From the IMG/VR virus record IMGVR_UViG_2600255157_000003: DNA of 57,517 bases. One strand, written 5' to 3'. A program made the translations under genes and the position numbers. The DNA comes from an uncultured virus (IMG/VR IMGVR_UViG_2600255157_000003) (Duplodnaviria; Heunggongvirae; Uroviricota; Caudoviricetes). Positions 13,689 to 32,893 of the stretch are shown piece by piece; the stretch's first letter is position 1, and every line of letters begins with the position of its first letter. The notes under the pieces were generated by a model, which was given only the letters and a program-made list of their open reading frames with translations, did no database searches and had not been told where the DNA came from.

Positions 13689-13955
13689 ATTTATCCTCCC
13701 ATAGTTCTATTTGTTTAATACTATATTTATTGTCCGTTCACATGCTTCTTTTAATATTTCTACTGCTTTGTCTAATTTTTCTTGTTCTTCATTCGTTAAA
13801 ACATTAATATTAGCAATCCTTACACCTTCCATTTTAGCAATCATTAAATCAGTTTGAAATTTTTGAGAAAAAACTATTAAATCAGATAAAACTTCAATAT
13901 TTTACTTATTCATTCTTTACCACCTTTAAAATATTATGAAATTTCACTTTTAAGT

Positions 13956-14174
13956 CTATATAAATAATCCAATTATCTGAAATATGCTCCCTACAACAAT
14001 GAAAGAGGTTCCTATAATAACCTTCATCTTATCTTTTTTGAAGCTTTCTTGCTGATGATCAAACCAATGAGCAGTGCCCACATAATTACCTTTAGTACCA
14101 AGTATAGACCACAAACTGAAAATTGTGCCAGCCACGACCAAAATAATTCCTATTGCACTCAATATCTTACTCAT
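13956..14174 (-). CDS. Small two-TM membrane protein
   Basis: Two hydrophobic helices; bounded by junction motifs 13937 and 14194. Confidence 0.7.
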   Translation of the reverse strand: MSKILSAIGIILVVAGTIFSLWSILGTKGNYVGTAHWFDHQQESFKKDKMKVIIGTSFIVVGSIFQIIGLFI

Positions 14175-14213
14175 ATTAATACCTCAAATTCTATGAAACT
14201 GAACATTCATCCA

Positions 14214-14490
14214 TCAATAACCCATTTTTTTCATCTGATTTATATCAAACTTCCAGAATGCTACTACATTATTTCCATATTTCTTAACAGCTGCTTGTCT
14301 TAATCCTTCACTCGTAAATATCAGTTCACATTTCTTTAAATCTTTGAATAATTTCTTACTCATTATAGGAGTGGATTTGTTAAAACCAAAACCAATTTTC
14401 TTGGTTATAATTTGATAACAAGCTCCATTATCCAAAATCAAATCATTTTCATCTATATCAAATATTTCTTCCGACTTTTAATTTTACCAT
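14214..14490 (-). pseudogene. Hypothetical protein with apparent frameshift near 14460
   Basis: MVKLKVGRNI* continues in another frame as DIDENDLILDNGACYQ. Confidence 0.5.
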
Positions 14491-14510
14491 TTTGTTATCC
14501 CTAATTTATT

Positions 14511-15242
14511 CTACATAAAATACTTACATTTTTCTAAATAAAACTGCTGCTCTTTTTCAAACAGACTGTTCAACAAATTCAAAGATTTTTCTTCTCTATA
14601 CTGTTTCAAAGCCTCCAGATACTCATTTCTATTTGCATCTTCAATCACAATCGGCACTATTCCATTTTTTAGACATTCCCTGAAAACAATTAACCTTCCA
14701 GTTCTGCCATTTCCGTCTTGAAACGGATGGATACTCTCGTATCTGGCATGAAACTCAGCCAATACAGAAATATTAATACCCTGATTATTATACCAGTCTA
14801 TAAGCAAAGACATCTCCTGTACAACATTCTCTGGTCTGACAGTCTGATACATACCAATCATATTAGGACGCTGTTTGTAATCACCAATAGCATATCCATT
14901 CGCACGATCCTCAAATACTCCCGATTTCAATTCATAATGAAATTGTTTTATCAGCTCTTGCGTCAATGATTCACCTAATGTATCCAACATCTTATTGAAC
15001 ATCAGAAAATGACCGTTCATTTCTTCAACATCTTTTGCTCTGTAATAATCGTCTGATTTTGGCAGCGTTCCATTATTAAACAGAGAAGCCGTTTGTTCCT
15101 CAGTAAGTGTACTCCCTTCAATCTTATTAGAATTATAGGCAAGTAAACGTTGTGTATATGCATATACCCCAGATCTATCAAACTTCTCTCTTTCTATTTT
15201 GAATCTTTCCAATAGGAAATCTAAAAACTTATCATCACCCAT
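14511..15242 (-). CDS. Fic-domain protein
   Basis: HPFQDGNGRTGR and YNSNKIEGSTLT motifs. Confidence 0.92.
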   Translation of the reverse strand: MGDDKFLDFLLERFKIEREKFDRSGVYAYTQRLLAYNSNKIEGSTLTEEQTASLFNNGTLPKSDDYYRAKDVEEMNGHFLMFNKMLDTLGESLTQELIKQFHYELKSGVFEDRANGYAIGDYKQRPNMIGMYQTVRPENVVQEMSLLIDWYNNQGINISVLAEFHARYESIHPFQDGNGRTGRLIVFRECLKNGIVPIVIEDANRNEYLEALKQYREEKSLNLLNSLFEKEQQFYLEKCKYFM

Positions 15243-15277
15243 AACAATTACCTTTCACAACAAATTTGTTAATTTAA

Positions 15278-15643
15278 CTAACAAATATTAAATATTTTCT
15301 CGTTTTTATATTTATTCTCTAATTCATCATAAGTAAAAACTTTGTTTGCTCCTTCAACACTAATTAAACCCAGTTCTGCATTTAATACTTTAAATGTTTT
15401 CCCATCATTGTGTTCAAAATGTATTTCACAAGGCACGGCATTATGAATATATGCATAATTAACTACTTCCTCTAAAGTGAGACATTTTTTATGTTCAGTA
15501 TAATTAATTATATTTCCATTAAGAATCTTTTGATTAAACCAATCATCAAATGTTGTTTTTTTATTCATTCTACTATGAGAATATATTTCTCTTAACTGAT
15601 TATAAGTATATATATTACCTTTAAACTTATATAATGTTTTCAA
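15278..15643 (-). CDS. Hypothetical protein
   Basis: 121 aa ORF. Confidence 0.6.
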   Translation of the reverse strand: MKTLYKFKGNIYTYNQLREIYSHSRMNKKTTFDDWFNQKILNGNIINYTEHKKCLTLEEVVNYAYIHNAVPCEIHFEHNDGKTFKVLNAELGLISVEGANKVFTYDELENKYKNEKIFNIC

Positions 15644-15667
15644 TATATTTATTAAACCAACCTTTCA

Positions 15668-15952
15668 TTAAAACCATGATATATTTACATCTATATTTTT
15701 ATCTTGAGCCATTTTAATAATGTCTTGTAAATCACGCAGTTTATATTCACTAATTCCTTCCAAAGAATGTATAACTTCTATATTGTCTATTCCATGTGCC
15801 TGCAAAAAATAAATATCTTTTGGTCGCCAAATATTTAATTTACTATGATATAACTCATCTTCGTAGTCAATAATTATTCCAAATAACTGTTCACCAATTC
15901 CCCAATCATGAAAACTTATTACATCTCCAATCTTTAATTCTTTTTTATCCAA
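15668..15952 (-). CDS. Hypothetical protein
   Basis: ORF between junction motifs 15652 and 15979; start inferred from GGAGGGG RBS. Confidence 0.6.
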   Translation of the reverse strand: MDKKELKIGDVISFHDWGIGEQLFGIIIDYEDELYHSKLNIWRPKDIYFLQAHGIDNIEVIHSLEGISEYKLRDLQDIIKMAQDKNIDVNISWF

Positions 15953-15996
15953 TACACTTCCCCTCCACACTCTCCTCTTAAAAACAGCAATTCATC

Positions 15997-16262
15997 CTAC
16001 TTCATTTTATAATATTTATACCACATTCTATATAATTCATTGTCTGAATGTGTTTCATGACTAAATTTTGATACCCGCTTTTTATAAGAACTGAATGTCC
16101 TGAAAAATCTGTAATCACAAATATCATAGGAACAAAATAATTTTTATATGCCCTTCCAGATGGAATATCTAAATAATTTCTACGCAAATGTCTATTTGCA
16201 CGCTTTTTCATTCCACGGTTATAATCCTTGTAACATGGAACTTTCTTATAACTTCTACTCAT
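15997..16262 (-). pseudogene. Basic phage protein (MSRSYKK type) with -1 frameshift in an A run
   Basis: One more A at 16141-16145 gives AYKKLFCSYDICDY...KMK*. Confidence 0.6.
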
Positions 16263-16288
16263 AACATTTCCCTCTTAAAAGCAACATT

Positions 16289-16519
16289 CTATTGCCTTGA
16301 CTCACTTAATGTATTAAGTAAACCCTTACCACCTTCCATTTGATTTAATCTAAATTCGACATCACTTACTGTATTCTGTGATACAAGTTTAATGAATTCA
16401 ATTGGAATATTATTTCCATTCTTTTTAGCAACCTGTTCTAAACCCTTTACTAATGATTCTGATCCAACCTTAACTCCTGCTAAATACGCTAATCTTATAC
16501 TATCCATAAATAATACCAC
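16289..16519 (-). CDS. Hypothetical protein
   Basis: 76 aa; stop codon inside junction motif. Confidence 0.6.
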   Translation of the reverse strand: MVLFMDSIRLAYLAGVKVGSESLVKGLEQVAKKNGNNIPIEFIKLVSQNTVSDVEFRLNQMEGGKGLLNTLSESRQ

Positions 16520-16580
16520 CTCACCAACTCATGCCATTTTTCTTCTTTTAAAATTTCTAATTTTTTTATTGTTAATCTTT

Positions 16581-16985
16581 CTATATATTAATTCCCAGCA
16601 TTTTATTAATCCATATACTTGCATTCAAATTGTCCGTTTTTAGGCATACCATTCCAATTAACGCCTGTTCCATTGTCTCGTACAAGACATTGCTATAATT
16701 ATTCAGTATAATTGGCTGATACCAAAATCCATGTTCTGGATTATCATCTCTCTGTGCCACAACAATAGCAGATTGTCCATCAATAACAATCACTTCTCTA
16801 ATATATTTTCTTCCAGACTTTTCTTCAAATTTATCTTTTAACTGATTTAATTCATATTCTCGTTTTGCTGCTGAAAACATTCTAACAACCTCTATTTTGT
16901 TTCCAAGATTTCCTTTATCTACAATCTCTTTTACGGCATTAAATATATCATCAGTTCCCTCTAATTCTCTATCATATAAACCCAT
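16581..16985 (-). CDS. Hypothetical protein
   Basis: 134 aa with RBS. Confidence 0.65.
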   Translation of the reverse strand: MGLYDRELEGTDDIFNAVKEIVDKGNLGNKIEVVRMFSAAKREYELNQLKDKFEEKSGRKYIREVIVIDGQSAIVVAQRDDNPEHGFWYQPIILNNYSNVLYETMEQALIGMVCLKTDNLNASIWINKMLGINI

Positions 16986-17002
16986 CTGATTATCCCTTCC
17001 CT

Positions 17003-17335
17003 CTATGCCTTTACGAATACTAGATTTTCTAAATCTGGCTTAATGCTTTTCCACGCTTCCATCACAGCCTCTTTTAATTTATCTTCACCAACAAATTCTA
17101 TGTATTTTTCTTTAACATATTGTTCACGTTCTTTTTGATCCAATTGCCTATACTCATACCTATCCCTAATCGTTGTGGATAAATATGTATATTTTCGTTG
17201 TCTTGAAGACTTATATCCAATATCAACAATTTGCCATATATTATTGTTTTGGTATCCATATCCTACCTGTAAATCTACCACAATAATAATATCCTGATTA
17301 TCTTCTGTTCTATATTTTAAAGCATCTATCCTCAT
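17003..17335 (-). CDS. Hypothetical protein
   Basis: 110 aa with GGGAGG RBS. Confidence 0.65.
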   Translation of the reverse strand: MRIDALKYRTEDNQDIIIVVDLQVGYGYQNNNIWQIVDIGYKSSRQRKYTYLSTTIRDRYEYRQLDQKEREQYVKEKYIEFVGEDKLKEAVMEAWKSIKPDLENLVFVKA

Positions 17336-17370
17336 ATATTATCCTCCCATTTTTCTATGAAAACCGGATT

Positions 17371-17776
17371 TCAAGATACTTTCTCTAACCATTTATAAGG
17401 ATAATGAAAAAATGTTGTCCTTCCATTTCCAGTATTGTGTCTTTTAGTCCAATCACAATCAAAACTTTGTATTATCCCAATACATTTTACTTTTACTTCC
17501 TTTAATACCCAAACTTCGTGTGTATATTTTGAATCTCTTACGTCTTTTACACAAGGATAGTATAATTCATTGCTATCCAACTCTTCATCTGGAACATAAA
17601 CAAAATATTTTCTTGGTATATCCTGAAGAGAAGATAAACATCCTTCTATCCAATCTGAAAAACAAACTCTTTTAGTAACTGTATCTTCATACATAGAAAC
17701 CGCACATTCTGGAACTCTTGGTGTTAGTTTCTTTAAATTTTTATCTATTGATAAATGATATAGTATATTGTTCACC
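17371..17776 (-). CDS. Hypothetical phage protein, possibly ADP-ribosyltransferase-like fold
   Basis: LYHLS...PRVP...RVCFS...HEVW pattern; fold call is tentative; GTG start after GGGAGG. Confidence 0.5.
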
Positions 17777-17795
17777 TCCCAATAAAAATCGAAAT

Positions 17796-18017
17796 TCATC
17801 TGTTGTCTTCATACCATAATTCTGCTAAAACTCTTGTTAAATCAGTTATTAACATGAGTATTCCGTTTGGTCGATAACGTTCACAATACTCATCTCTAAT
17901 TTTTCCTAACTCATTATCTGGAATTGAACCCGTTTTCTCAGATTCTAAAAACTGCTCAAATAATAAGATTAATTCTTCATGAGTTTTACTATAAAAAACA
18001 TTATTGTTGTCTACCAT
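17796..18017 (-). CDS. Hypothetical protein, paralog of 18052-18270
   Basis: EELILLFEQFLESEKTG.I...EL..IRD.YCE...LWY. Confidence 0.7.
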   Translation of the reverse strand: MVDNNNVFYSKTHEELILLFEQFLESEKTGSIPDNELGKIRDEYCERYRPNGILMLITDLTRVLAELWYEDNR

Positions 18018-18051
18018 ATATACCTCCATACTACTAAATAAAATCAGACAT

Positions 18052-18270
18052 TCATCGGTTCCAGTACCATAAATCCGCCATTGTATGTAACAAGTCGTAT
18101 TGTATCATATTAAGCGGATTAGAATTAAACCATTCACAATATAAATCACGAATCTCTCTTAATTCCTCGCCTGTAATAACACCTGTCTTTTCAAATTCCA
18201 AAAACTGCCCATACAGTTTTTTCAACTCTTCGTCATTCTTTTCTTTAAAAATATTTCTATATTCATTCAT
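18052..18270 (-). CDS. Hypothetical protein, paralog of 17796-18017
   Basis: EELKKLYGQFLEFEKTG.I...EL..IRD.YCE...LWY. Confidence 0.7.
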   Translation of the reverse strand: MNEYRNIFKEKNDEELKKLYGQFLEFEKTGVITGEELREIRDLYCEWFNSNPLNMIQYDLLHTMADLWYWNR

Positions 18271-18311
18271 ACTGCATTTACCTGCGCTTTCCTTAAAATC
18301 AGATTCATCAC

Positions 18312-18608
18312 CTAATACATCAACGCCACTTCCATTTTGTTCTTCAGCTTAACATAGATTGTACTTTCGCTGCTTTTAATCTTATAGTCTTCCAGTTCCC
18401 ATTTATAAATATCAATTTCGATATCTGTTAATTTTGATTTTAGATATAACATATCGGAATTGATACTTTCTACGAAACCGTTTACATCTACCAAATCTCT
18501 AAAGCCATATGTAGAAACTGCACTATATACAATTCCTACAAGATTTCCTTCCTTCGCTTTATTGTACGCATCTACAATAAGATTCTTAAATTTATTGTCA
18601 TTATTCAT
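18312..18608 (-). CDS. Hypothetical protein
   Basis: 98 aa with AAAGGA RBS. Confidence 0.65.
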   Translation of the reverse strand: MNNDNKFKNLIVDAYNKAKEGNLVGIVYSAVSTYGFRDLVDVNGFVESINSDMLYLKSKLTDIEIDIYKWELEDYKIKSSESTIYVKLKNKMEVALMY

Positions 18609-18620
18609 ATAGTTATCCTT

Positions 18621-18839
18621 TCACACCTCAAACGCTTCATTTCCAAGTAACATTTCTACGTGCTGTTTTAAACTTGATATTGCAGAAATATCAAAATTAA
18701 TCATTTCCTGCTCAAGCTCATCTGATAAATTGCTCATTGCAGAAAGTTTCTCTAATGACCTTTCCATACGCTCGTATGCCTCATCCAAATCGTTCCAGAC
18801 TTCCATCAGCCTACCTTGTGTTTTGTTTATTCTCGCCAT
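18621..18839 (-). CDS. Hypothetical coiled-coil protein
   Basis: Start at MARINKTQ. Confidence 0.6.
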   Translation of the reverse strand: MARINKTQGRLMEVWNDLDEAYERMERSLEKLSAMSNLSDELEQEMINFDISAISSLKQHVEMLLGNEAFEV

Positions 18840-19107
18840 ATAATCCCTCTCCCATCTCCTGAAGATAATGCCACAAGTCAACACCATCCACGCTGCTCAT
18901 ATCAGTTTTATACCATTCTTTCTGAAATATAAAATAGAAATAGCATCTATTTGTTCTCACAGTAAACCAGAACTTCACTTTCTGATCATTGATGTTTCTC
19001 TCAAAATTATCCCAATAATCATTTTTGCTATTGATTTTCGGTGGCTGTTTCAATTTAATACATTTTACTTTATCTCCGTCCTCTGTATATAAAATCATCC
19101 AAATCAC
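18811..19107 (-). CDS. Hypothetical protein
   Basis: 98 aa ORF with GGAGG RBS. Confidence 0.6.
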   Translation of the reverse strand: MIWMILYTEDGDKVKCIKLKQPPKINSKNDYWDNFERNINDQKVKFWFTVRTNRCYFYFIFQKEWYKTDMSSVDGVDLWHYLQEMGEGLYGENKQNTR

Positions 19108-19130
19108 CTGCCTCCAATAAAATCAAGTTT

Positions 19131-19916
19131 TCAATTACCAAAAATTCCTTCAAATGCCTCATAATTTTTATCCCTTCCTTTAGGAACTGCAAATATAACT
19201 TTTTCAAAACATTTGTGTGATGTATCAAGATATTCTTTAAATATTTCAGCAACTTCCTTTGCATTTTGTCCAAAAACGCCACAGCCATATGCTCCAAGAA
19301 TCAAAAGATCAACTTGGTTTTCCTTTGCCATATCTAACACAAATTTAATTCTTGATCTCAATACTTTTGTGTTCTCCTCATCTGAAACATTCTGATATTT
19401 TTGTGCTGCTGACTTGTTGGGAGCCGCACATGTGATAACATCACATAATACACAATTTCCATCCTTATAGAAAACAATACTAGGAGAATATAACCCTCTG
19501 TTCAGATATAATGCTTTGTTCTTATTTCTATTATTCCAATCATAAAACGGTAGTACAAACTCTGATAATACATTATATAAACATGATTCATGACACAAAC
19601 ATTCTTCCTGCGCTTTGCTTCCGTTAATAAACATTCCTCCAGGATTCTTATATGACGAGAAGTTCAACACTGCCATACGATTTTTACAATCTTTTGCATG
19701 ATTTATGATGGCAGAAACGCTGTCAACCGCTTCCACAATAATATCCATTTTACATGAATACGATTTACTACATTCAAAGTCAACATCATAAATAATACTG
19801 TTTTCTATTGACTCTTTTATTCTTCCGCTATATACTTGTTCCATTTCTTTAATATGTTTCTTAGCTTGTTCTGCTCTCTTTTCTTTGTTATTCCAATACT
19901 CTTTTATGTATGCCAT
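19131..19916 (-). CDS. Bacterial-type poly(ADP-ribose) glycohydrolase (TIGR02452/DUF2263 macrodomain)
   Basis: VLNFSSYKNPGGMFINGSKAQEECLC, ITCAAPN and LILGAYGCGVF motifs. Confidence 0.9.
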   Translation of the reverse strand: MAYIKEYWNNKEKRAEQAKKHIKEMEQVYSGRIKESIENSIIYDVDFECSKSYSCKMDIIVEAVDSVSAIINHAKDCKNRMAVLNFSSYKNPGGMFINGSKAQEECLCHESCLYNVLSEFVLPFYDWNNRNKNKALYLNRGLYSPSIVFYKDGNCVLCDVITCAAPNKSAAQKYQNVSDEENTKVLRSRIKFVLDMAKENQVDLLILGAYGCGVFGQNAKEVAEIFKEYLDTSHKCFEKVIFAVPKGRDKNYEAFEGIFGN

Positions 19917-19988
19917 TTTTCTTTCCTCCAATAAAATCAATCTTTCAAATACATAATCATCCTTTTATTCATTTTATCACAACTATAA

Positions 19989-21011
19989 CTATTTTGCTAT
20001 CATTTCAAGTCCATCCAACAATTGATTATACAGTTTCATAATTTCAACCGCGTTAGTCTCATCTTTAGCATCTAAAATTTTTCCAAAAGCGCAAAGCATA
20101 TAATCCCTAAGTTCAGAATTGTCATAAACACTCACTGGCTTCTTGACAACAAAAGGTATTTCTTGCCCGTCCATAACATACTTCTTATATTTCTCCCCAA
20201 AATCTTGTAAATATTCTCTTTCAAGTTTCGCTGTTTCTCCTAAATATTTATTAGTTATTTTTTCGGACGAATGGTTATATAGTTCCATAAGAACTGATTT
20301 TGCTACTAGATCGTTCGGATGAAGCTCAATCATCATTTTACCCATCCCACGTCTCATAGAATGTGAACGAATATCATAATCAAGGTATTCTCCAGCTTTA
20401 ATAAGTGCCTGCCTATAACCTTCCTGTGAAATAACTTTTCCTCTATGGGTTCCGTGTAATTGCTTAAAAATATATTCATCATAATCATATTCAAAATCAA
20501 TACTTTTCTCATTCTCCAGAAAAATCCTAAATGCCTCTTGGATAGCAATATTAATGAATAACTCTTTCTTTTTTCTTGTTTTTTTCTCACCATCTACACG
20601 GTATCCCAATTCATCTATTCTTTTTACATCCCAGAATTTTTTCATATTCCCATTTTTATAAAAAAAATCTGACCACTTAGACTGAAGTAGATCTGAAATC
20701 CGTCTTCCAGTATTAATATTTAATGTAAACAACAAGTAAAAATTCCACTTTTTGTTTTCAATAAAATAATCCTGTATTTTCTTCATATCCTCAAAATTTT
20801 CTATTGCCGTTTTAATAGATTTTGTACCACACTGTTTATTCGCGACACACCCATTCTTATCAAGATACTTTCTTTCACCATTAACATCAATAAAACATTT
20901 TCCATTAGAAATATCACTGAACACAAAATATAATTCCCCTTGGTATTCACATGTATTTTTAATGCTTTCCTGTTTACTTTCTATCACTTTTTCTTCACTA
21001 ATCTCTACCAT
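19989..21011 (-). CDS. Tyrosine recombinase
   Basis: NTGRRISDLL, EKKTRK, RSHSMRR, YNHSS and KYLG: catalytic set appears intact. Confidence 0.9.
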   Translation of the reverse strand: MVEISEEKVIESKQESIKNTCEYQGELYFVFSDISNGKCFIDVNGERKYLDKNGCVANKQCGTKSIKTAIENFEDMKKIQDYFIENKKWNFYLLFTLNINTGRRISDLLQSKWSDFFYKNGNMKKFWDVKRIDELGYRVDGEKKTRKKKELFINIAIQEAFRIFLENEKSIDFEYDYDEYIFKQLHGTHRGKVISQEGYRQALIKAGEYLDYDIRSHSMRRGMGKMMIELHPNDLVAKSVLMELYNHSSEKITNKYLGETAKLEREYLQDFGEKYKKYVMDGQEIPFVVKKPVSVYDNSELRDYMLCAFGKILDAKDETNAVEIMKLYNQLLDGLEMIAK

Positions 21012-21146
21012 ATTAACCCAATCCTTTCTTAATTGTTACACTTTTCTCTGACCTCTGGCTGAATTACCAATGGTAAATCTTCCGCTTTGTATATACTTCC
21101 ATTCATATAGTTACACCTCCAATCAAATGGTGATTTCAAGACTATA

Positions 21147-21455: not shown

Positions 21456-21553
21456 ACATTTCCTCCAATCATTTTATATAAACTACTTCTCTTTTTCGTT
21501 GAAAAGTATAAAGCACGTTCCAACATTTCATATCAACGTGAAATGTGTTATAC

Positions 21554-25388: not shown

Positions 25389-25402
25389 CCCCAAGGAAAC
25401 AA

Positions 25403-25594
25403 TCATTTCAACTGTAAACAAAATTCCAATTCAGCAACTTCTGTTTTCAATTTTTTAATTTCCAATAGTGAACTGATTGCATTATCCTCATATGTTGCTG
25501 AATCCATATTTTTTATGTCAATTCTAAAATATTCCTGCTGTCGCTCTAATTCTCTTTTCTTAGCAGCAAGCCTCTGTTCCATAACTTCTACCAT
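25403..25594 (-). CDS. Small coiled-coil protein
   Basis: 63 aa with AGGAGG RBS. Confidence 0.65.
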   Translation of the reverse strand: MVEVMEQRLAAKKRELERQQEYFRIDIKNMDSATYEDNAISSLLEIKKLKTEVAELEFCLQLK

Positions 25595-25635
25595 ATAAAC
25601 CTCCTATCTCAGGCAATGAAATAATCCTTTTCTGT

Positions 25636-25821
25636 CTATGCTAATTTTCTATTCTGTCTCACTCTATTCCCATTTTTCCATCGTTCAGGTCTTAACTGTC
25701 CGAAAACCCATTTCCATTCTTCTTCTGGCATTACATGAGTTCCATGTTCAAACTTAACAATAAACATGTATTTTCCATGAGAAATAAAATTTCCAACTAT
25801 TTCAAATCTAATCTTATCCAT
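25636..25821 (-). CDS. Hypothetical protein
   Basis: 61 aa with GGAGGT RBS. Confidence 0.6.
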   Translation of the reverse strand: MDKIRFEIVGNFISHGKYMFIVKFEHGTHVMPEEEWKWVFGQLRPERWKNGNRVRQNRKLA

Positions 25822-25928
25822 TCTTAATTACCTCCATATTATACCATTTTATCAATATAAAAGCCACCGGATTTTTTCTTTCTGGTGGCTTCAAATTATC
25901 TGTTCTATATTCAATTTTAATTTTCGCA

Positions 25929-26129
25929 TCATCTCTTATCATATTTTCCTGACAAGATATTCTGATTTACCTGTGAATTAGATAAGTCATTAAGAATCCT
26001 ATCCTCGTTCATCTTGCCATAATCAATTTTTCCAACATGGGTGTTTAAATAATTACTTGATCTGCCATCTTGTAATTTAAACCAGCTAACAATTCCTAAA
26101 ATAAAAAGTGCACTTAAAATAATTTCCAT
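25929..26129 (-). CDS. Small single-TM protein
   Basis: MEIILSALFILGIVSWF after AAAGGA RBS. Confidence 0.6.
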   Translation of the reverse strand: MEIILSALFILGIVSWFKLQDGRSSNYLNTHVGKIDYGKMNEDRILNDLSNSQVNQNILSGKYDKR

Positions 26130-26214
26130 AATATTTTCCTTTCTGTCACCATGTAGAACTTCACTATATTTTCTTTTTAATTTTATTGTGTCATGTACCA
26201 AAGAAAGGTACATT

Positions 26215-26424
26215 TCATGACTTCTCAACTTTGTTGATATAAATTCTATCAGTCCAAAACATACTTTTTCTTCTCTCTGATCCATCAGGATGAAACAATC
26301 CCCTATAGTCCTTTACTCTAATATTGCCTCCTCCAGTTATCTCTGTTACTTCTGTTTTACGAATTACCTTTCCAAAGAAATCTTTTACTTCTACTTTGTC
26401 TCCAACTTCAAAACTATTATTCAT
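26215..26424 (-). CDS. Small beta-barrel-like hypothetical protein
   Basis: FEVGDKVEV; AAAGGAG RBS. Confidence 0.6.
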   Translation of the reverse strand: MNNSFEVGDKVEVKDFFGKVIRKTEVTEITGGGNIRVKDYRGLFHPDGSERRKSMFWTDRIYINKVEKS

Positions 26425-26508
26425 AAAAATTTCTCCTTTTTCGCATAATAAAAGCATCTGGATATTCCTTCTCCAAATGCTTTTAAATGATTCACTATTT
26501 TCTATTAC

Positions 26509-26835
26509 TTACATGAAACTATTTATCAGTTCCTTTGCTTCGTTCCATAAATCTTCTGGACATTCTTCTTTAAACCGAGCATTTCTAGCACCAACATCCA
26601 ACATCTTCGCCTGATCACACAATATCACTCCTGTTGTTTGTGTCCGTTCATCTAATTCTATATGAAACGGATGCTTTTTGTTGGTGTTTGTTATCGGACA
26701 AACAAATGCCAATGAGCTATGATGATTCAAAATATCATTACTCAGGACAAGTGCTGGTCTTCTTCCACTCTGTTCATGTCCCTTTTGAGGGTTAAAGTCC
26801 ATAACAATTATGTCACCTTGTTTATACGTTACCAA
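26509..26835 (-). CDS. mazF: MazF/PemK toxin, second pair
   Basis: DFNPQKGHEQSGRRPALVLS motif. Confidence 0.92.
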   Translation of the reverse strand: MVTYKQGDIIVMDFNPQKGHEQSGRRPALVLSNDILNHHSSLAFVCPITNTNKKHPFHIELDERTQTTGVILCDQAKMLDVGARNARFKEECPEDLWNEAKELINSFM

Positions 26836-27134
26836 ATTTCATTACCCTTTGGATCACCTACATCAACCTCTTGCGTACTTTCGACATAAATTTCGTCAAT
26901 CGGTCTTTTGTAGAATGCTTCCAGCCTTTCTGCTAAATTAAGGTATTTAGGCTTGTTGATTTTCTCAACAGTCATTTTTCCATCGTAAACATTTATTCCT
27001 ACAGTGTCATTCTCTTGTAAATTCATTTGTGCCAATATTTCTTTGGATAATCTAATGCCCTGACTGTTTCCCCACCTCCTTATGTTCGTTTGTATCACAT
27101 ATTTTCCATCCTTTTGTATTGTTGTTTGTTCCAT
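26829..27134 (-). CDS. mazE: MazE antitoxin, second pair
   Basis: IRRWGNSQGIRLSK...GDPKGNEIW. Confidence 0.9.
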   Translation of the reverse strand: MEQTTIQKDGKYVIQTNIRRWGNSQGIRLSKEILAQMNLQENDTVGINVYDGKMTVEKINKPKYLNLAERLEAFYKRPIDEIYVESTQEVDVGDPKGNEIW

Positions 27135-27257
27135 TGACTTCTCCCTTCAAGTATATACGATGGATATACCTTTGATATTAGTATATACATAGTATATCCA
27201 TTTGTCAATATTAAAATCCACCTTCTTTCATGTCATTCAATGAATTGCGAATTTTAT

Positions 27258-27647
27258 CTACCAATCATTTCCCTCATTGTATTCTATTTTCTTACCACAC
27301 CAAGGACATATATCATATTCTCCATCCTCAATTCTTTTTGGCTGATCAAATCCCCTAACATATGGAAAGTATGTATGTCCGCAATCTGTGTCATAATTTA
27401 CTGAGCCATTTCCACTTGACCATTTGCAAAAATCATCTTCAATATCATCTTCTAAAAGCTCATTTTCTTCTTTTACTTCCGACACAAACAATTCTCTGTC
27501 ATACTTATAATCTTTTCCATCACAAGGCAGATTAATTTCACCCTCGTTTATCTTATCATCAATATCCTGATAAGCTATATCTTCGTTCTTAGCTTCCACT
27601 TCTACATATCTTCTATATGTTTCCACAATTTCTACTTTAAATTTCAC
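27258..27647 (-). CDS. DpnD/PcfM-like protein with Zn ribbon
   Basis: FKVEIVETYRRYVEVEA; CPWCG. Confidence 0.6.
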   Translation of the reverse strand: MKFKVEIVETYRRYVEVEAKNEDIAYQDIDDKINEGEINLPCDGKDYKYDRELFVSEVKEENELLEDDIEDDFCKWSSGNGSVNYDTDCGHTYFPYVRGFDQPKRIEDGEYDICPWCGKKIEYNEGNDW

Positions 27648-27807
27648 TACAATTCCTCCCTAATGCCTTTAATACCCTTTTAACATATTTTCTATTTCCG
27701 TCTATAACAACGTCTCTTGAATCCAATGTATCAGGATACCAGTCAAAATCTTCTCTTTCCAAAATGTCAATTTCTTTATCTGTAACGTCCGTAATAATAA
27801 ATTCCAT
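27637..27807 (-). CDS. Hypothetical protein
   Basis: Start at MEFIITD after GGAGGG. Confidence 0.55.
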   Translation of the reverse strand: MEFIITDVTDKEIDILEREDFDWYPDTLDSRDVVIDGNRKYVKRVLKALGRNCSEI

Positions 27808-27854
27808 CTTTAATCCCTCCATTTTTGCCAAGGAAATACGAGATTCAAAGCAAT

Positions 27855-28043
27855 CTACAAATTCAAGTAATTAAGCTGAGTCTGAAAACGATCACTTGTT
27901 ACATATTCTATAATTGCTTTTTCATGTTCCTTAATTTTTCTTTCCAATAATTCTTTATTTTCTGGATACTTAGAAAGCAATTCCTTGTCCATTCTATAAC
28001 GTGATACATAGTGTTTAAGTGATATTGGTGATCTTTGAATCAT
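27855..28043 (-). CDS. Hypothetical protein
   Basis: 62 aa between junction motifs. Confidence 0.6.
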   Translation of the reverse strand: MIQRSPISLKHYVSRYRMDKELLSKYPENKELLERKIKEHEKAIIEYVTSDRFQTQLNYLNL

Positions 28044-28077
28044 TTTTTCTCCTTCCTACCGTCATGAAATTCCGAAT

Positions 28078-28278
28078 TCATTTCCTAGTTGCCCTAAACA
28101 TTACTTTTAAATCTTTTGCCATATAATCCATTCCAAGACTGCCACATGAAATACAATGAATATTATTTTGCTCTTCAATTGCATTTTTTAACTCTGGTTT
28201 ATTAACTTCAATTTCATTGCGTTTAAACATACACCCACAACTTGGACACACATAAGTATCTTCTTCAATAAATTTCAT
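28078..28278 (-). CDS. Small Zn-ribbon protein
   Basis: CPSC...CISC; bounded by motifs 28065 and 28302. Confidence 0.65.
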   Translation of the reverse strand: MKFIEEDTYVCPSCGCMFKRNEIEVNKPELKNAIEEQNNIHCISCGSLGMDYMAKDLKVMFRATRK

Positions 28279-28314
28279 TTTTCTTTCCTCCATTTTCCTG
28301 TTAAAATCCTGATT

Positions 28315-29115
28315 TCAGACTTCAATTACATATGCTTGATCCGTCAATCTTTCTTCTGGTTCTACTTGTGTCTGATTTACTTCCTGTACCATATTACTTA
28401 ATTCTTCAATAGCACATTTTCCATCATCAGGAATAACGATCATTTCGTGAATAGAACTAGGCAACACAATGAATTTTGACACATCTAATTTCTGTGACAA
28501 TTTCTTTAATGCTTCTCCATCCAGAATTGCGGACGCTCCTCTAAAATTTATAGTATTAGTTACTATGTACTGTATTGGAATACCTTCCATTTCTTCAATT
28601 TCCTGTCCCATTAATTCAGACAATTTTTCCGACATAGATACAATCTCAGTATTTGCAAAAGTAATAGTTTCCGCTGCTTTCCAGGCTTCATCTCGACTGA
28701 TCTTTAATGTTTCCAGCAGTCCATATGTTAGCTTAAAAGAGGCGTTTTCATTCATTTTTACATATAAATACTTCTCAATACCTTCAAAATCTGTATCTGA
28801 CCTTACAATATCTTCTACGCTTGTCTTCTGCATTCCGATATAAAGATTTTCCATAATAAAGTCAGAATCAAGCAAGTTATCTTTATTAAAATCCATAATA
28901 TCAGCATTATTGTAGGTATCTATTGCCTTTTCAACCGCTTCAGAAAGTGATTCAGAATCAGCTATGATTTCATCTGTGTAGATCACAGGACAAATCCCGT
29001 TATCATTCATAAAGCGGATTCCATCAAATTCTACACCGTTTTTAATGCTTGTGTGTGCTTCTACTTTATAATTTCTGTTTGCAAGTTCCTGAATAATATC
29101 TTCTCTCCTAAACAT
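28315..29115 (-). CDS. DUF5688-like protein
   Basis: KNGV, YIVTN...GAS.IL, VLPSSIHEMI and MVQEVN...L.D motifs. Confidence 0.8.
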   Translation of the reverse strand: MFRREDIIQELANRNYKVEAHTSIKNGVEFDGIRFMNDNGICPVIYTDEIIADSESLSEAVEKAIDTYNNADIMDFNKDNLLDSDFIMENLYIGMQKTSVEDIVRSDTDFEGIEKYLYVKMNENASFKLTYGLLETLKISRDEAWKAAETITFANTEIVSMSEKLSELMGQEIEEMEGIPIQYIVTNTINFRGASAILDGEALKKLSQKLDVSKFIVLPSSIHEMIVIPDDGKCAIEELSNMVQEVNQTQVEPEERLTDQAYVIEV

Positions 29116-29152
29116 TTTTATTTCCTCTCTTTCTCTACTTAGAATTGTGTTT

Positions 29153-29680
29153 TCATCTGCTAATATAAATCCTTACTGAATTCCCATTGTCAAAGGCTTC
29201 TATAATATTTTTTTCATTTTCCAACAATGTATATTTGATCCTGTATCTAATTCCACCATTATAAAGTTTCTCATAATAATATGAATCAAACTCCTCCATA
29301 GTCATTTCAATTTCTTTTCCGTCTTCAAATACAGTAACACTATCAATTCTATTGAATGACACATATTTTCCAGAATTAATTAACTCTTCCAATGTAACAG
29401 CTCTTTTCCTCATTCTTAACAAATGTTTTCCATAGTCATACATTGTGCAATAGCGACTTCCAATCTTTAAGTCAAATCCTCCTGATTCTTTTGCTGGTTT
29501 GCTATCTTTCATAAATCCTTCTGCATATTCAATAAAAGCATCTTCTGTATAGATTTTCCCATTCCAATCATCACGACTTCTTCCCGATGTATCATTATTA
29601 CATCCACTTAAATCCAAATGAAGCGACCGTCCATCTGATAATTTGATAATCTTTGTTTCAAAAATAATTGAATAACTCAT
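29153..29680 (-). CDS. Hypothetical protein
   Basis: Start at MSYSIIFETK. Confidence 0.65.
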   Translation of the reverse strand: MSYSIIFETKIIKLSDGRSLHLDLSGCNNDTSGRSRDDWNGKIYTEDAFIEYAEGFMKDSKPAKESGGFDLKIGSRYCTMYDYGKHLLRMRKRAVTLEELINSGKYVSFNRIDSVTVFEDGKEIEMTMEEFDSYYYEKLYNGGIRYRIKYTLLENEKNIIEAFDNGNSVRIYISR

Positions 29681-29865
29681 ATTCTTAACCATCCTTTCCA
29701 CTCTGTATTTCTCCATTTATTCGGCGTTTACAGTCACTATAAAAGGCACTAACGAATATTTCCGCTAATGCCTTCTAACTGGTTATCATTCCCGGCAACC
29801 ATCTGATCTACTGCTGATTGTGAAAATAATCCTAAATTTTGCATTGTTATTCCTCCTCGTTTATA

Positions 29866-30429
29866 TTATCCTAACCCTGCATATTCACCATAATATTTTT
29901 CACGCATTTCTTTAGCAAATTTCCCAGCTTCTTCTAATCTATCTTTTGAAAATCTTCCTAAACAAGTACCTTTTCCGTTTACTTGTAGTTGTACAATCCA
30001 TGCTGAACCATCCCAACTTACATTTCTATATCCTGATTTATTGTTGATATTTCTACTTTCTCTATTTTTCCCGTTATCAGGTACATTTGTTATTCTCAAA
30101 TTCTCTTTTCTATTATCTAATGTATTATGATTTTCATGATCTACATTAAATTCTCTTGCTGTTTTATCAAGTCCCATTATAAACTGATGCATTAATATTG
30201 TTCTTCCATGTTTTAATTCTGGTAAATATTGAGTTGCACAAGCATAATAACCTTTTGCGTTTGCGCTGTATTTTGCATACCATGTATATGGAAAATTAAT
30301 TACTTTATCTAAATCCTCCAAGTCAATTATTACCCACATATTTTCACTGTTTCTTCTATTAAGTTCAATTTTCACTATATTGTTTTCTTTGTCTACAATA
30401 TAGTTGTTACCCTTTTTGCAATTACCCAA
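29866..30429 (-). CDS. HNH-AP2 homing endonuclease
   Basis: MHQFIM, VDHENHNTLDNRKENLR, SGYRNVSW and AP2-like C-terminus. Confidence 0.9.
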   Translation of the reverse strand: MGNCKKGNNYIVDKENNIVKIELNRRNSENMWVIIDLEDLDKVINFPYTWYAKYSANAKGYYACATQYLPELKHGRTILMHQFIMGLDKTAREFNVDHENHNTLDNRKENLRITNVPDNGKNRESRNINNKSGYRNVSWDGSAWIVQLQVNGKGTCLGRFSKDRLEEAGKFAKEMREKYYGEYAGLG

Positions 30430-30457
30430 TTAATAAATCAATCCTTTCTTTAATCAA

Positions 30458-30520
30458 AATATCATTCTCTGCATTAGTGGCTTGAAACACTCTGAATAAA
30501 TCAGGCTGCATTATAATATT
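30458..30520 (-). ncRNA. Twister ribozyme (type P1)
   Basis: AAUAUUA-UAA-UGCA-GC-[CUGA..UCAG]-A-GUG-UUUCAAGC-CAC-UAA-UGCA-GAGAA-UGAUAUU: P1, P2, P3, P4 and both pseudoknots can form. Confidence 0.85.
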
Positions 30521-30715
30521 CTACAAAGTCCTGTTGACCGTTACCCATTCACAATACTGCACTCGTTCCACCATCAACCCAAAAGAGGTTTTAAGAGTTC
30601 TTTTGGTACTCTATAAAGCGCTTATTTGCTTTACAATTATATTATATAGCTTTATGGCTATATTGTCAAGTATAAAAATAGCTTTGTGGCTATTTTTATT
30701 TTCCACAAAGCTATT

Positions 30716-30931
30716 CTATATTCTTTCATCGTTAATAATAAAACTACCTTCAAACTTACATCCACATACTTCCGCAATATGTATTAGATCTGATTCCCTC
30801 CAATCATCCAACTTGAATTTTTTAGATAATGTTGGTTGAGCAACTTCTAATTTGTCAGCTAATTCCTTTTGAGTGATTCCTTTTTTTATCATAAGTATTT
30901 TTATTTTCTCTGTCATTCCTATTTTAATCAC
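30716..30931 (-). CDS. Xre/Cro HTH regulator
   Basis: GITQKELADKLEVAQPTLSKK. Confidence 0.85.
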   Translation of the reverse strand: MIKIGMTEKIKILMIKKGITQKELADKLEVAQPTLSKKFKLDDWRESDLIHIAEVCGCKFEGSFIINDERI

Positions 30932-30991
30932 CTTCTTTCATATAGCAGATAGAATATATTATAGCCTATCTGCTATATATTTTCAATATTT

Positions 30992-31222
30992 TTATCCTCT
31001 GATCATCTCAAAATCTTCCAGTTCCTTCTGTGTCAATTCCCTGTTATAGAACAACTCAGCCCATACCATACGCCCACTCACTTCCGTTCTGGTGTCATAG
31101 TTAATAAAATCCATCAAGCCGTTTTTAGGGTGTGTTCCGATACTTACAGGACGCATAACAGAATAATATTTGTTCCAATGGTATTTTTGTGCTGATTGCC
31201 TGATGTAATTATTTGTGTTCAT
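30992..31222 (-). CDS. DarA_C-like small protein
   Basis: YYS..RPVSIGT.PK...Y.RELT..EL.DFEM. Confidence 0.6.
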   Translation of the reverse strand: MNTNNYIRQSAQKYHWNKYYSVMRPVSIGTHPKNGLMDFINYDTRTEVSGRMVWAELFYNRELTQKELEDFEMIRG

Positions 31223-31232
31223 GATCCGCCTC

Positions 31233-31694
31233 CTATATTCCATTTTCATGAAAGCTATAATAACTATTTCCAACAATAACACTGTCTAACACATTTATTC
31301 CTATTAGTTTTCCAGCTTCTTTCAAACGGTTATATGATTCTATATCCTCTTTTGATGGCGTTGTATCTCCACTTGGATGGTTATGTGCAATAACAATTCC
31401 ACTTGCTCCACATAATAAGGCTTTAATAAAAATTTCCCTAGGATTGCATATTGTCATGTTTACCATTCCATGAGATATTTCAAACACGCCTAAAGGCTTT
31501 CCTTTATTATCCAATGCGATCATATATAAATATTCCTCTGTTTGTTTATTCAGCCGAAAAACAACATTGAACATTTCCGCTATCAATGATGGTGTATTCA
31601 ATGTTTCAACACCTGTACAATTACAAGATTTTTCTTTTACTAAAACATTGAGATTGTCTTGGTTTAATTCCGTTTTATATGTTGTAATTCTCAT
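31233..31694 (-). CDS. RadC-like JAB domain protein
   Basis: PREIF, AHNHPSGD..PS.ED and IGINVLD motifs. Confidence 0.9.
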   Translation of the reverse strand: MRITTYKTELNQDNLNVLVKEKSCNCTGVETLNTPSLIAEMFNVVFRLNKQTEEYLYMIALDNKGKPLGVFEISHGMVNMTICNPREIFIKALLCGASGIVIAHNHPSGDTTPSKEDIESYNRLKEAGKLIGINVLDSVIVGNSYYSFHENGI

Positions 31695-31785
31695 GTTATT
31701 ACCCTCCATTTTACAATAATAAAAGCAAATAACATTTTTACTTGTCACTTGCTTAATACTTCTATATTTATACCGTTTATTTGCA

Positions 31786-32163
31786 TTATACAGGCATTCC
31801 AACACTAACAGGTAATAATTCTTGCTTATTGTTAAAATCTACCATATAAAGCCCTTCTGAACCATCTGAACGCCTACAAAATCCATATGCTTCATTAGTC
31901 CATAAAGCACAATGTAACCGCTCTAAAATATATTCAATTCCATTCAATACAAATATTTCAGGATAATATAATTCAAGTGTTGGAATATCCGTTTGTTTAT
32001 CCTCATTTTCTGCCAATAACTGAGTACCGCTTATAGAAAAATCATTGAAATATTTCCGTGCCAGATGTAAAGCATAGTATGATGTGTCTCTGTTGTCCTT
32101 TTCATTCACATTTACATATGCCATTATATTGCTTCCAGCTTTAAATATTTTCCATGTATTCAT
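31786..32163 (-). CDS. Hypothetical protein
   Basis: 125 aa with AGGAGG RBS. Confidence 0.65.
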   Translation of the reverse strand: MNTWKIFKAGSNIMAYVNVNEKDNRDTSYYALHLARKYFNDFSISGTQLLAENEDKQTDIPTLELYYPEIFVLNGIEYILERLHCALWTNEAYGFCRRSDGSEGLYMVDFNNKQELLPVSVGMPV

Positions 32164-32409
32164 GATTATATATCCTCCTGACGTTCTTATTTATCTTATT
32201 TAAGGACTTAATGCAACGCACATACATTTTTGCATATGCGCTAATTTAAGGCTTTAAATAATCTTGTATGGTAGGTTCATCGTGGCGTTATCCCGACACC
32301 TTTATAACCGAATGGGCATGAGGATATTATTATTCTTTGCCATCGGTCACGACTCATTTAAACTTATCCAAGGTCTTGATAATGTCCTATCAAACAGTAG
32401 TTTCATTGC

Positions 32410-32640
32410 TTATCCAAACAACGGAATACATTTTCCCATTAATTCACTGTTATATGCTTCTCCGTTTACTGAATTTTCATTATTTATGCTCTCCTGTAAA
32501 TGCTGTTCGCAATATCCAGAAATTACCTTCACATCAATATAATTTCCAAGCGCCATTCTTTCTTTTGCGGTTACATATCCATGCCATCCAACCGCTTTTT
32601 TTCCACATATAACGCAATTTTCAGTTTTTAAATGTTGCAT
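32410..32640 (-). CDS. Hypothetical protein (CxxC)
   Basis: Start at MQHLKTENCVIC. Confidence 0.6.
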   Translation of the reverse strand: MQHLKTENCVICGKKAVGWHGYVTAKERMALGNYIDVKVISGYCEQHLQESINNENSVNGEAYNSELMGKCIPLFG

Positions 32641-32893
32641 TATTTTTCCTCCCTCCATGAAATACACGATTTATGCCTTTAATCTTCCATCAAAAAATCT
32701 ATCTGATTTTTAATTTCTTCTACTACCACATTATAAGATATTGCATTTATAAATAGTTTCCGTGCAAGTGTTTTAGAAATTTCTCTTTCCTCTGCAATTT
32801 GATCTATCAAATAATCTGTCACTTGTTTTAATGTGAAATTTTCTAATTCCTTCATGACTATACCTCCATAAAAAACACAAATTTGTCATTACA

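Follow-up and report, generated by a model that had tools for sequence, protein, structure and literature searches.

Ordered six-base centres in gene-junction repeats suggest matched crossover sites for accessory-gene exchange in SPbeta-like phages

A DNA stretch of 57,517 nucleotides (nt) from an uncultured virus (IMG/VR record IMGVR_UViG_2600255157_000003; hereafter the window) carries at many of its gene junctions an inverted repeat of 16 base pairs (bp), TRAAA-N6-WTTYA, in which two conserved arms enclose a six-base centre, and these centres recur in the same order in related phages while the genes between them are gained, lost or replaced. We judge it somewhat probable that the sites are matched crossover points where SPbeta-like phages exchange accessory-gene modules. 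The broader proposal, that SPbeta-like phages, including SPbeta itself, possess a natural form of cassette exchange in which an ordered address code would let one recombinase swap accessory modules, for defence or anti-defence, slot by slot without scrambling its own genome or losing parts of it, is plausible but held more tentatively. The window corresponds to positions 249055-306571 of contig C12 in a 7-Mb genome (G000), whose contigs mostly have 41-47% G+C, and lies inside an island of ~183 kb with ~31% G+C (C12, about 190-373 kb). Because this AT-rich island contains a YonO-type RNA polymerase together with regulators recognized by Pfam, the element is, to judge from its gene content, a very large SPbeta-like prophage.

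The pattern TRAAA-N6-WTTYA matches 37 times in the window (both strands), compared with a mean of 12.5 (standard deviation 4.8) in 100 dinucleotide-preserving shuffles, none of which reached 37. An original prediction, made from the letters of the window alone, had proposed the repeat as a recombination site, and the repeat itself is confirmed. When arm spacings from 0 to 15 were compared, spacing 6 alone was enriched, with 25 matches versus 1-12 at other spacings in positions 1-36000 of the window and 81 versus 19-39 in the whole island. All 25 repeats listed in the prediction hold the motif, 16 as exact TRAAW-N6-WTTYA matches and nine with one arm mismatch, and their spacers all differ, as had been stated; sites at 22839, 32390, 12414 and 2833 were absent from that list. 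The island has 84 strict sites, 41 of which fall in the ~12% of sequence outside called open reading frames (ORFs). No centre is duplicated among these 84, and since chance alone gives under one duplicate pair among so many, within-genome uniqueness of the centres was discarded as uninformative.

Within 13.5-33 kb, an exact site was found in 10 of 34 tight same-strand gene junctions, as compared with 0-1 of 34 for other spacings, and a site matching at least nine of the ten fixed positions in 20 of the 34. These junction counts are approximate because the ORF calls are a crude longest-ORF set. In the gene sense, a stop codon, in many cases supplied by the left arm as TGA or TAA, is followed by the site and then by GGAGG 1-12 nt later, in line with the predicted position between the end of a gene and the next ribosome-binding site (RBS). 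Ten sites had been said to end in a stop codon; the count by crude leftward ORF calls is nine. The scarcity noticed earlier in an operon placed at 6-11 kb and in the rightward arm also held, with sites in 0 of 8 tight junctions of the operon at 5.9-13.4 kb and in 2 of 17 junctions of the rightward arm.

Base preferences at the sites are symmetric and reach one base beyond the earlier pattern on each side, giving a-TGAAAy-N4-rTTTCA-t. Arm positions 2 and 15 vary independently of each other (G-C 23, G-T 23, A-T 20, A-C 18; Fisher p 0.83), and one-sided, uncompensated arm mismatches are present in nine of the 25 earlier-listed sites. Because the preferences are symmetric, the arms do not covary and the mismatches are uncompensated, the motif points to a site presumably read by a protein dimer through two half-sites on duplex DNA, rather than to an RNA or cruciform stem. 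With symmetric inverted arms set 6 bp apart, it has the core arrangement of Xer/dif-type sites, namely two inverted arms around a central region of 6-8 bp. Three long perfect palindromes outside the prophage also hold the motif at their core (G000:C11:26957, C1:345971 and C11:3978; arms of 13-16 bp and a six-base centre); they were considered as host dif sites and set aside, as their arrangement is unlike that of canonical dif.

Searches of IMG/VR with proteins of the array led to two related contigs, G090 (110 kb) and G091 (129 kb). Both are mosaic but retain synteny with the island, and they contain 43 and 71 sites, respectively, versus 21 and 10 matches to a reversed control pattern. Among the 24 sites at 13.9-32.7 kb of the window, 21 have a counterpart with an identical centre, in order, in at least one other element; two of the remaining three have variants differing by 1-2 bases (TCACCA/TCATCG and GGTTGG/GGCTGG), and one has no counterpart. 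With strict sites, the island and G091 share 24 centres, 23 of which are collinear, where order shuffling gives a mean of 7.4 (maximum 11) and random centres share a mean of 1.4. The corresponding values are 19 shared and 18 collinear for the island and G090 (order-shuffled mean 6.4, maximum 10; random mean 1.1), and 22 shared, all 22 collinear, for G091 and G090 (order-shuffled mean 7.0, maximum 11; random mean 0.5). In addition, an IMG/VR scan for the 16-mer with centre TCCGGT returned 34 loci, of which ten, including G090 and G091, carry at least three window centres in order, while the other 24 look like chance matches. Subsets of the centres, again with their order kept, were observed in AT-rich islets of four genomes of the same genus and in the first 5 kb of G000 contig C1. 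Over 16 sequences, 159 of 163 matches to 21 core centres, defined as those recurring in at least three sequences, are collinear, and shared centres have the same orientation in 63 cases and are reverse-complemented in two. By sequence comparison, the six-base centres are best read as position-specific addresses and not as arbitrary spacers. The conserved order and orientation argue against free shuffling, which would scramble the order, and fit exchange between matching sites of different phages. An integron-analogous capture or shuffling within one array, as originally proposed, is thus not upheld by the collinearity, the orientation bias and the lack of any attC-like palindrome, and the suggested Tn916-like tolerance of arbitrary mismatched overlaps is unsupported as well, since each centre is position-specific and keeps its order in related arrays.

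Slots with the same bounding centres vary in length and content. Slot TCCGGT>TGTTGC holds nine DNA cargo clusters in 11 sequences, slot TCTAAG>TTAGAT holds six clusters in six sequences, and slot GATTGA-ACTTGA contains PARG in the window and an unrelated ORF of 233 amino acids (aa) in G091. For 290 genome pairs that share both flanking centres of a slot, any similar cargo ORF at the protein level was present in 59, and the cargo was unrelated in 231. Likewise, 20 of the 23 collinear identical-centre pairs of the island and G091 lack similarity in either 120-nt flank, three have it on one side, and none on both. Across all sequence pairs, 585 same-centre site pairs were available (100-nt flanks), in which neither flank is similar in 470 cases, only the upstream flank in 61, only the downstream flank in 50, and both in four.

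Identity in the arms depends on the adjoining flank. With a homologous upstream flank, identity is 75% at left-arm position 2 (58-61% otherwise), 98% at left-arm position 5 (80-84% otherwise) and 95% at position -1 (70% otherwise), and with a homologous downstream flank it is 78% at right-arm position 15 (42-52% otherwise) and 92% at position +1 (67-69% otherwise). Where homology is upstream only, the right arm stays at background, and where it is downstream only, the left arm is not raised. Each arm therefore moves with its own flank, which puts the join in the stretch that separates the two arms, within the centre or at its borders. Ends of BLAST homology between the arrays, taken with no selection on the centre, numbered 632, and 108 of them are no more than 12 nt away from a site centre in each of the two genomes (null 0.5%). 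The centres at these ends are identical in 73 cases and differ by one base in eight, by two in five and by at least three in 22, several of the last being mis-registered weak 9/10 matches. Relatives gain, lose and replace genes exactly at the sites, in agreement with the idea of recombination sites delimiting units of one to three genes. Read from the sequences, this pattern appears to require recombination that starts and ends at the sites, with each centre kept.

Natural variants were sought in contigs of four mouse-gut runs (two DNA, two RNA-library), which were compared with positions 13500-33000; 15 of 29 joints were listed. Eight of the 15 listed joints touch a site, and 11 of their 30 endpoints lie within a site or at most 2 nt off, where the sites plus 2 nt make up about 2.5% of the stretch. 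One variant has the 1068 nt between sites 17358 and 16276 replaced by 1017 different letters. Others omit the Fic gene enclosed by sites 24225 and 23591 or have different sequence in its place, lack the 63-aa gene lying between 25617 and 25395, or contain 363 extra letters at the border of site 24225; this insertion was seen in 4/4 runs and has the same arrangement as in G000:C1. These joints are population variants, not observed reactions. The mouse-gut metatranscriptome runs X15 and X16 hold 83-85% of the sampled words of 14000-23900, and their contigs of up to 5.3 kb cross several sites. If this signal is RNA rather than DNA carry-over, the array is transcribed through the sites in the gut; metatranscriptome contigs cannot show 5' ends, and gaps in the cover of these runs carry no information.

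As originally predicted, an intact tyrosine recombinase (P0001, 340 aa; 19989-21011, minus strand; Pfam PF00589) lies between two sites, those at 21123 and 19932, and its catalytic residues are conserved, the set R103/R104, K144/K147, H217, R220, H247 and Y256 being invariant in 26 homologues. The structural model of P0001 (predicted local distance difference test, pLDDT, 81.8) consists of a small four-stranded N-terminal beta domain, a catalytic domain and a C-terminal helical extension, with no helical core-binding domain. A fold search returned weak generic tyrosine-recombinase matches (lambda Int, XerH, XerA) with template modelling (TM) scores of about 0.35-0.5, and no sequence match was obtained among solved structures. 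P0001 matches only the general PF00589 family, and its gene is flanked by two ordinary sites within the array. All eight phage arrays that extend over the slot preceding centre GATTGA have a tyrosine recombinase there: five enzymes are of the P0001 type (340-346 aa or a 286-aa form; 26-44% identical to P0001), and three belong to a P0003 type (331-342 aa), which is XerD/XerH-like and unrelated to the P0001 type. The P0003 type keeps the catalytic R, H-x-x-R, H and Y, and its best match by sequence among solved structures is XerH (E 1.2e-13). Besides, one bacterial islet keeps an 88-aa recombinase fragment in this slot. Strict co-occurrence of P0001 and the motif was rejected, because G091 has 71 sites and no P0001 homologue in 129 kb (a record estimated to be 71% complete); it carries a different recombinase in the same slot. 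P0001 was also considered as a homologue of the SPbeta proteins MrpR or YopP and dismissed, as no significant BLASTP match to them was obtained (YopR E 7.0).

Turning to SPbeta itself, the early arm (60-110 kb) has a spacing-6 count of 27 versus 3-11 at other spacings, and the late region a count of 10 versus 4-18. The SPbeta sites have the same stop-site-RBS layout as those of the window, with arms mostly TAAAA and TTTTA. In a small sample of 14 kb, SPbeta and SPbetaL4 share 8 of 13 centres, all collinear (order-shuffled maximum 6), and four of these eight shared-centre pairs have neither flank homologous; SPbeta and phi3T, also compared in a small sample, share seven centres, all collinear. 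SPbeta has another repeated element, SPBRE, which according to the accessible part of the report is present at about ten promoters and is bound by the recombinase-fold repressor MrpR, a protein described there as lacking crucial catalytic residues (PMC10516654). Read from the SPbeta upstream regions of the reported target genes, SPBRE is ATACAAAWAATATGTAT-like. The two systems are alike in coming from the same phage family and in pairing a repeated intergenic element with a tyrosine-recombinase-fold protein of the early arm. Nevertheless, the junction sites are not SPBRE, whose sequence is different and promoter-located, and P0001 keeps the catalytic residues that MrpR, in the excerpted account, is without (PMC10516654). 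Since the SPBRE sequence differs from the spacing-6 sites of SPbeta, SPbeta carries both elements. YopP is a conserved tyrosine recombinase of SPbeta. The SPbeta record further annotates two 'palindrome' features (77856-77871 and 82394-82411), which flank the yopM-yopR operon and are neither SPBRE nor the junction dyad.

In the reading that we favour, a tyrosine recombinase would bind the inverted arms (TGAAA and TTTCA) and exchange strands across the six-base centre, and strand exchange would be completed only between partners with matching centres. Candidate enzymes may be encoded by the array (P0001 here, XerH-like ones in some relatives) or may be the host Xer. Site k of one phage would cross with site k of a co-resident relative, and two such crossovers would replace the genes in between; as the centres within one genome all differ, sites of the same genome would not recombine, and gene order would be kept. 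Such an overlap check is an established property of Cre, FLP, lambda Int and Xer, and Cre/lox, FLP/FRT and Xer/dif resemble the proposed system in that exchange is completed only with matching centres. A recombinase that tests a 6-bp overlap would explain the geometry of the sites, the arm-flank linkage, the conservation and the order of the centres, the absence of inversions and the resident recombinase; the acting enzyme, the chemistry and the matching-centre requirement are what we infer here.

Several observations weigh against a site-specific exchange of this kind. The conserved bases amount to only 5-6 bp per arm, which is short for a tyrosine recombinase (Xer-type arms have about 11 bp), and the palindrome lacks outward extension, 72 of 81 island sites being prolonged by 0-1 bp. 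The arrays are associated with at least two very different recombinase types, P0001-like and XerH-like, yet neither the arms nor the bases used in them differ from phage to phage, so that the array enzyme may not be the reader of the sites. The P0001 homologue of G090 is located about 15 kb away from the shared array and has no spacing-6 enrichment in the surrounding 20 kb; the bacterial genomes G017 and G008, which have small arrays, carry their nearest P0001 relatives, distant ones, on other contigs. Moreover, 524 of the 632 BLAST homology ends and 19 of the 30 endpoints of the listed mouse-gut joints lie elsewhere than at sites. The link between address and cargo is loose, as 35 of the 108 site-adjacent ends have different centres and protein-similar cargo stands under a different slot label in 171 segment pairs versus the same label in 59. 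The core centres were chosen by recurrence, and related phages are not independent samples. Finally, no recombination product, circle or chimeric read was seen in the run data, which consist of contigs only.

The comparative pattern shows recombination at the sites rather than its chemistry, and the sites could instead be conserved linkers, as in Botstein's modular theory, that are used by RecA or by a phage annealing protein without any site-specific enzyme, the palindrome being kept for another reason, e.g., regulator binding. SPbeta is annotated with a Sak4-like annealing protein, yorG, and the array recombinases are too diverse for an obvious common DNA specificity, both of which would suit such linkers. 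However, orthologous sites often have no more than about 9-14 bp of uninterrupted identity, since the partners differ at arm positions 2, 5 and 15, and this would be very short for homology-driven exchange. Linkers also give no reason for a strict dyad with one spacing, or for a recombinase in the same slot of 8/8 arrays, and we consider them an unlikely explanation, albeit one with some weight. The location between a stop codon and the next RBS, 1-12 nt upstream of GGAGG, would suit operators for a dimeric phage protein or RNA signals between cistrons, in which case mosaic boundaries would fall there because a control element is selected. The half-site geometry may suit a helix-turn-helix dimer, SPBRE with its recombinase-fold protein MrpR is a precedent from SPbeta in the accessible text of that report (PMC10516654), and contigs from RNA libraries cross several sites, DNA carry-over being possible. 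Yet a regulator needs no distinct centre per site that is kept identical across phages with unrelated flanks, and SPBRE differs from the junction sites in the ways given above. A promoter or terminator element was rejected, as the region has 110 promoter-like matches versus 112 expected and 4 terminator-like ones versus 3.9 expected, not co-located with the sites; the four best promoter matches lie away from sites, two of them before MazE genes. An RNA hairpin was rejected too, since the arms show neither covariation nor compensatory changes, and Rfam gave no family in the window besides two transfer RNAs (tRNAs). Operator sites and RNA signals, which the original prediction had kept as alternatives, are accordingly improbable as the main explanation, and such a function is possible as a second role of the sites.

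Some cargo families stand beside different centres or in other slots, the recombinase gene lies within the array, and G000:C1 has an additional gene whose insertion point coincides with the edge of a site. These features would be expected if a mismatch-tolerant recombinase of the Tn916 type excised cassette circles and reinserted them at any site of the array, in the manner of an integron. Free reinsertion would, however, erode the order and orientation of the centres, which are kept over 16 sequences, and neither an attC-like extended or folded site nor, although no search was aimed at one, a platform of attI plus promoter was seen; we therefore regard this scheme as distinctly improbable. 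One further mechanism would explain the unique, ordered and conserved centres and the arm-flank linkage equally well as the matched crossover that we prefer: a phage nuclease may cut within the centre, leaving site-specific overhangs that let fragments of co-infecting phages religate in one order only. The window encodes two Uma2-family nucleases and a GmrSD-type one, and SPbeta is annotated with a ligase-like protein. On the other hand, cutting its own genome at dozens of places would be costly to the phage, no nuclease is positionally tied to the array, whereas the tyrosine recombinase is, and we know of no phage system of this religation type, which makes it a very improbable alternative.

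Engineered cassette exchange with heterospecific lox or FRT sites uses common arms and different spacers, recombination takes place only with an identical spacer, and a pair of sites swaps a segment unscrambled. It is a laboratory design with two to few variants, whereas here there would be a natural set of more than 80 centres per genome. Integrons, too, consist of small, mostly promoterless genes that point the same way and are set apart by recombination sites, and a tyrosine recombinase gene lies within this series or next to it. Their attC sites are imperfect palindromes of 57-141 bp with paired R/L boxes, recombined as folded single strands at attI, and their cassette order is free; in contrast, the sites described here are of a 16-bp duplex type in fixed order, and the recombinase is inside the array as one of the cargoes. 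The pdif sites of Acinetobacter plasmids are 28 bp long, with asymmetric XerC/XerD arms in alternating orientation, and are served by host XerCD. They resemble the present sites in that Xer-type sites, which are numerous and have 6-bp centres, delimit small accessory modules (resistance, toxin-antitoxin) that differ between related replicons, but to our knowledge position-specific centres in fixed order have not been reported for them. Shufflons (Rci/sfx) are characterized by sites in two orientations, unlike the 63 same versus two reverse-complemented centres found here.

As far as the available portions of the two papers describe it, XerH binds a pair of arms that enclose a 6-bp central region, with specific recognition confined to the innermost 5 bp of each arm (PMC5241119), and its site difH has the sequence TGAAAA-CTGCAC-TTTTCA in Helicobacter, that of Campylobacter being TGAAAA-CTATAA-TTTTCA (PMC3325230). 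The two systems have in common that inverted arms enclose a 6-bp centre, the difH arms TGAAAA/TTTTCA given there being nearly those of the phage sites (PMC3325230), and among solved structures XerH is the best match to P0003, the array recombinase of the relatives. However, TGAAA and TTTCA are separated by 8 bp in these published difH sequences (PMC3325230) and by 6 bp here. Besides, difH is a single site per chromosome that resolves dimers, whereas dozens of sites per phage (84 strict ones in the island), each with its own centre, are present here. Compared with Xer/dif in general, the phage sites are without conserved outer arm bases, and P0001 is not Xer-like in sequence. The PeSL of T4-type phages are described, in the accessible text, as promoter-plus-terminator units that recombine by mutual similarity and yield mini-circles, and as short repeated intergenic elements in accessory ('hyperplastic') regions whose recombination gives gene insertion, deletion and replacement between relatives, this last description being what they have in common with the sites studied here (PMC2839356). 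The sites described here differ in being 16 bp long, in having no promoter-like or terminator-like enrichment and in having centres that differ from each other; because of these mutually different centres, within-genome exchange is disfavoured, unlike for PeSL. No description of the junction sites was found in the literature searched, a search that did not include Lazarevic 1999.

The fixed order of SPbeta-like early arms contrasts with their fast-changing accessory genes, and the window has Fic, PARG, MazEF, RadC and nucleases; the record of a relative annotates the anti-defence gene Gad1 in the homologous array. Free gene exchange under a fixed gene order has previously been put down to illegitimate recombination plus selection. 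If the favoured reading is true, defined and matched crossover sites would be a mechanism for modular phage evolution and would explain the independent reassortment of neighbouring accessory genes, and such slot-by-slot exchange at the population level would be without a described natural counterpart. If the centres enforce partner choice, they would amount to a natural library of over 80 site variants that exclude one another and could serve multiplex genome engineering. Because SPbeta and Bacillus subtilis, a standard laboratory system, have sites of this kind too, the idea lends itself to direct testing.

The 24 sites within 13.9-32.7 kb are given below from high to low coordinates, without strand, with centres read on the gene-sense strand. 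CGTGTA (32658-32673) is an exact match, and G091 has the same centre at 8137 with the order kept. CTACTG (32390-32405; one arm mismatch), one of the additions to the earlier list, has the same centre at G091 8514, ACACAA (29140-29155; one arm mismatch) at G091 13434, and TCAGGA (28302-28317) at G091 14272, while no counterpart of TCGGAA (28065-28080) was found in the compared sequences. CTCGTA (27832-27847; one arm mismatch) and TTCGCA (27241-27256) are collinear core centres. Three collinear sites with one arm mismatch each follow, which are associated with joints of the mouse-gut contigs: a joint ends inside TGTACC (26202-26217), another 1 nt away from GGATTA (25617-25632), and others inside and 2 nt away from TGATTG (25395-25410). 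The collinear sites TAATAG (24225-24240) and TCTAAG (23591-23606) lie upstream and downstream of a Fic gene, respectively; the former has an extra gene of 363-372 nt at its edge in G000:C1 and in 4/4 runs, and the latter is touched by metagenome joints.

The array at G000:C1:1-5000 is a second, short AT-rich array at a contig end, with DUF6551, MazF and Fic homologues and with TAATAG, TCTAAG and TTAGAT in order; its extra 114-aa ORF is located between the MazF and Fic homologues and has TGAAA on both sides. In the window, TTAGAT (22839-22854) has one arm mismatch, is collinear and is likewise new to the list, and TCACCA (21123-21138; one arm mismatch) corresponds to TCATCG in relatives. Next come the collinear sites GATTGA (19932-19947), ACTTGA (19118-19133), GTCTGA (18039-18054) and TTCGAT (17783-17798). 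The two sites that bound the cargo replacement seen in the gut are collinear as well, a joint ending 1 nt away from TCCGGT (17358-17373) and inside TGTTGC (16276-16291; one arm mismatch). TGCTGT (15979-15994) is collinear, GGTTGG (15652-15667; one arm mismatch) corresponds to GGCTGG in relatives, a joint ends inside the collinear GTTCAG (14194-14209), and the collinear GTGAAA (13937-13952) is the last of the 24. Further sites are TTATGG (12414-12429), which lies outside the earlier span and is collinear in relatives, ATTTGA (1828-1843), which has a G090 counterpart, and TGAAAC (1353-1368), which is collinear in G091 and G090. At 2132-2152, two site readings overlap, the earlier-listed one at 2132 with one mismatch and an exact one at 2137.

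According to the Pfam scan and the ORF map, the cargo genes between the sites (13956-32667, minus strand) comprise two Fic genes, PARG, two MazEF pairs, DUF6551, DUF5688, a DpnD/PcfM-like gene, RadC and many small family-less ORFs. Over the leftward arm as a whole, the accessory genes recognized by Pfam are two Fic, PARG, three MazF (two with MazE), two Uma2 nucleases and GmrSD, together with RadC, DpnD/PcfM-like, DUF5688, DUF6551 and Thg1 families and many small ORFs assigned to no family. Both MazE-MazF pairs are preceded by near-consensus sigma-70 promoters (11 of 12; 24846-24874 and 27180-27208, minus strand), so that these cargoes, in contrast to most of the array, come with promoters of their own. 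A megablast search of 13-33 kb against 50,697 phage records returned no close cultured relative.

Genes of the window run leftward from about 36 kb down to base 1 and rightward past 36 kb. The YonO-type single-subunit RNA polymerase that marks SPbeta-like phages is present as a 916-aa protein at 47721-50468 (plus strand), which has an RdRP-type Pfam match and is 42% identical to SPbeta YonO over 891 aligned columns, i.e., its whole length (BLASTP, E 0). Its gene sits in a 183-kb prophage of an AT-poor host outside Bacillus. Further Pfam matches in the window include antirepressors, Cro/C1-type regulators, an HU-like protein and a weak sigma-like match. Another tyrosine recombinase, P0002 (56100-57209, plus strand), is 27% identical to SPbeta YomM (E 7e-16) and adjoins a very AT-rich stretch. 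A tyrosine recombinase is also present at each edge of the island (C12:189351-189887 and C12:365881-366351), and either could be the integrase.

Two tRNA genes are carried by the window. For the one at 10346-10422 (minus strand; Rfam tRNA match, 53 bits), ARAGORN left the identity undetermined and reported an anticodon of four bases, 'ttaa', and the gene may provide the phage with a suppressor (UAA-reading) or frameshift-type tRNA; the other is a tRNA-Lys at 52319-52394. A Thg1-like tRNA-His guanylyltransferase is encoded at 3136-3987. The phage arm is interrupted at 3992-5938 by an inserted IS110-family element of 48% G+C with a 458-aa DEDD transposase. Copies of this element are 99.4-99.5% identical on contigs C37 and C38 and 94% identical on C21, and end fragments of ~100 nt match at window positions 57456-57564 and 59010-59115.

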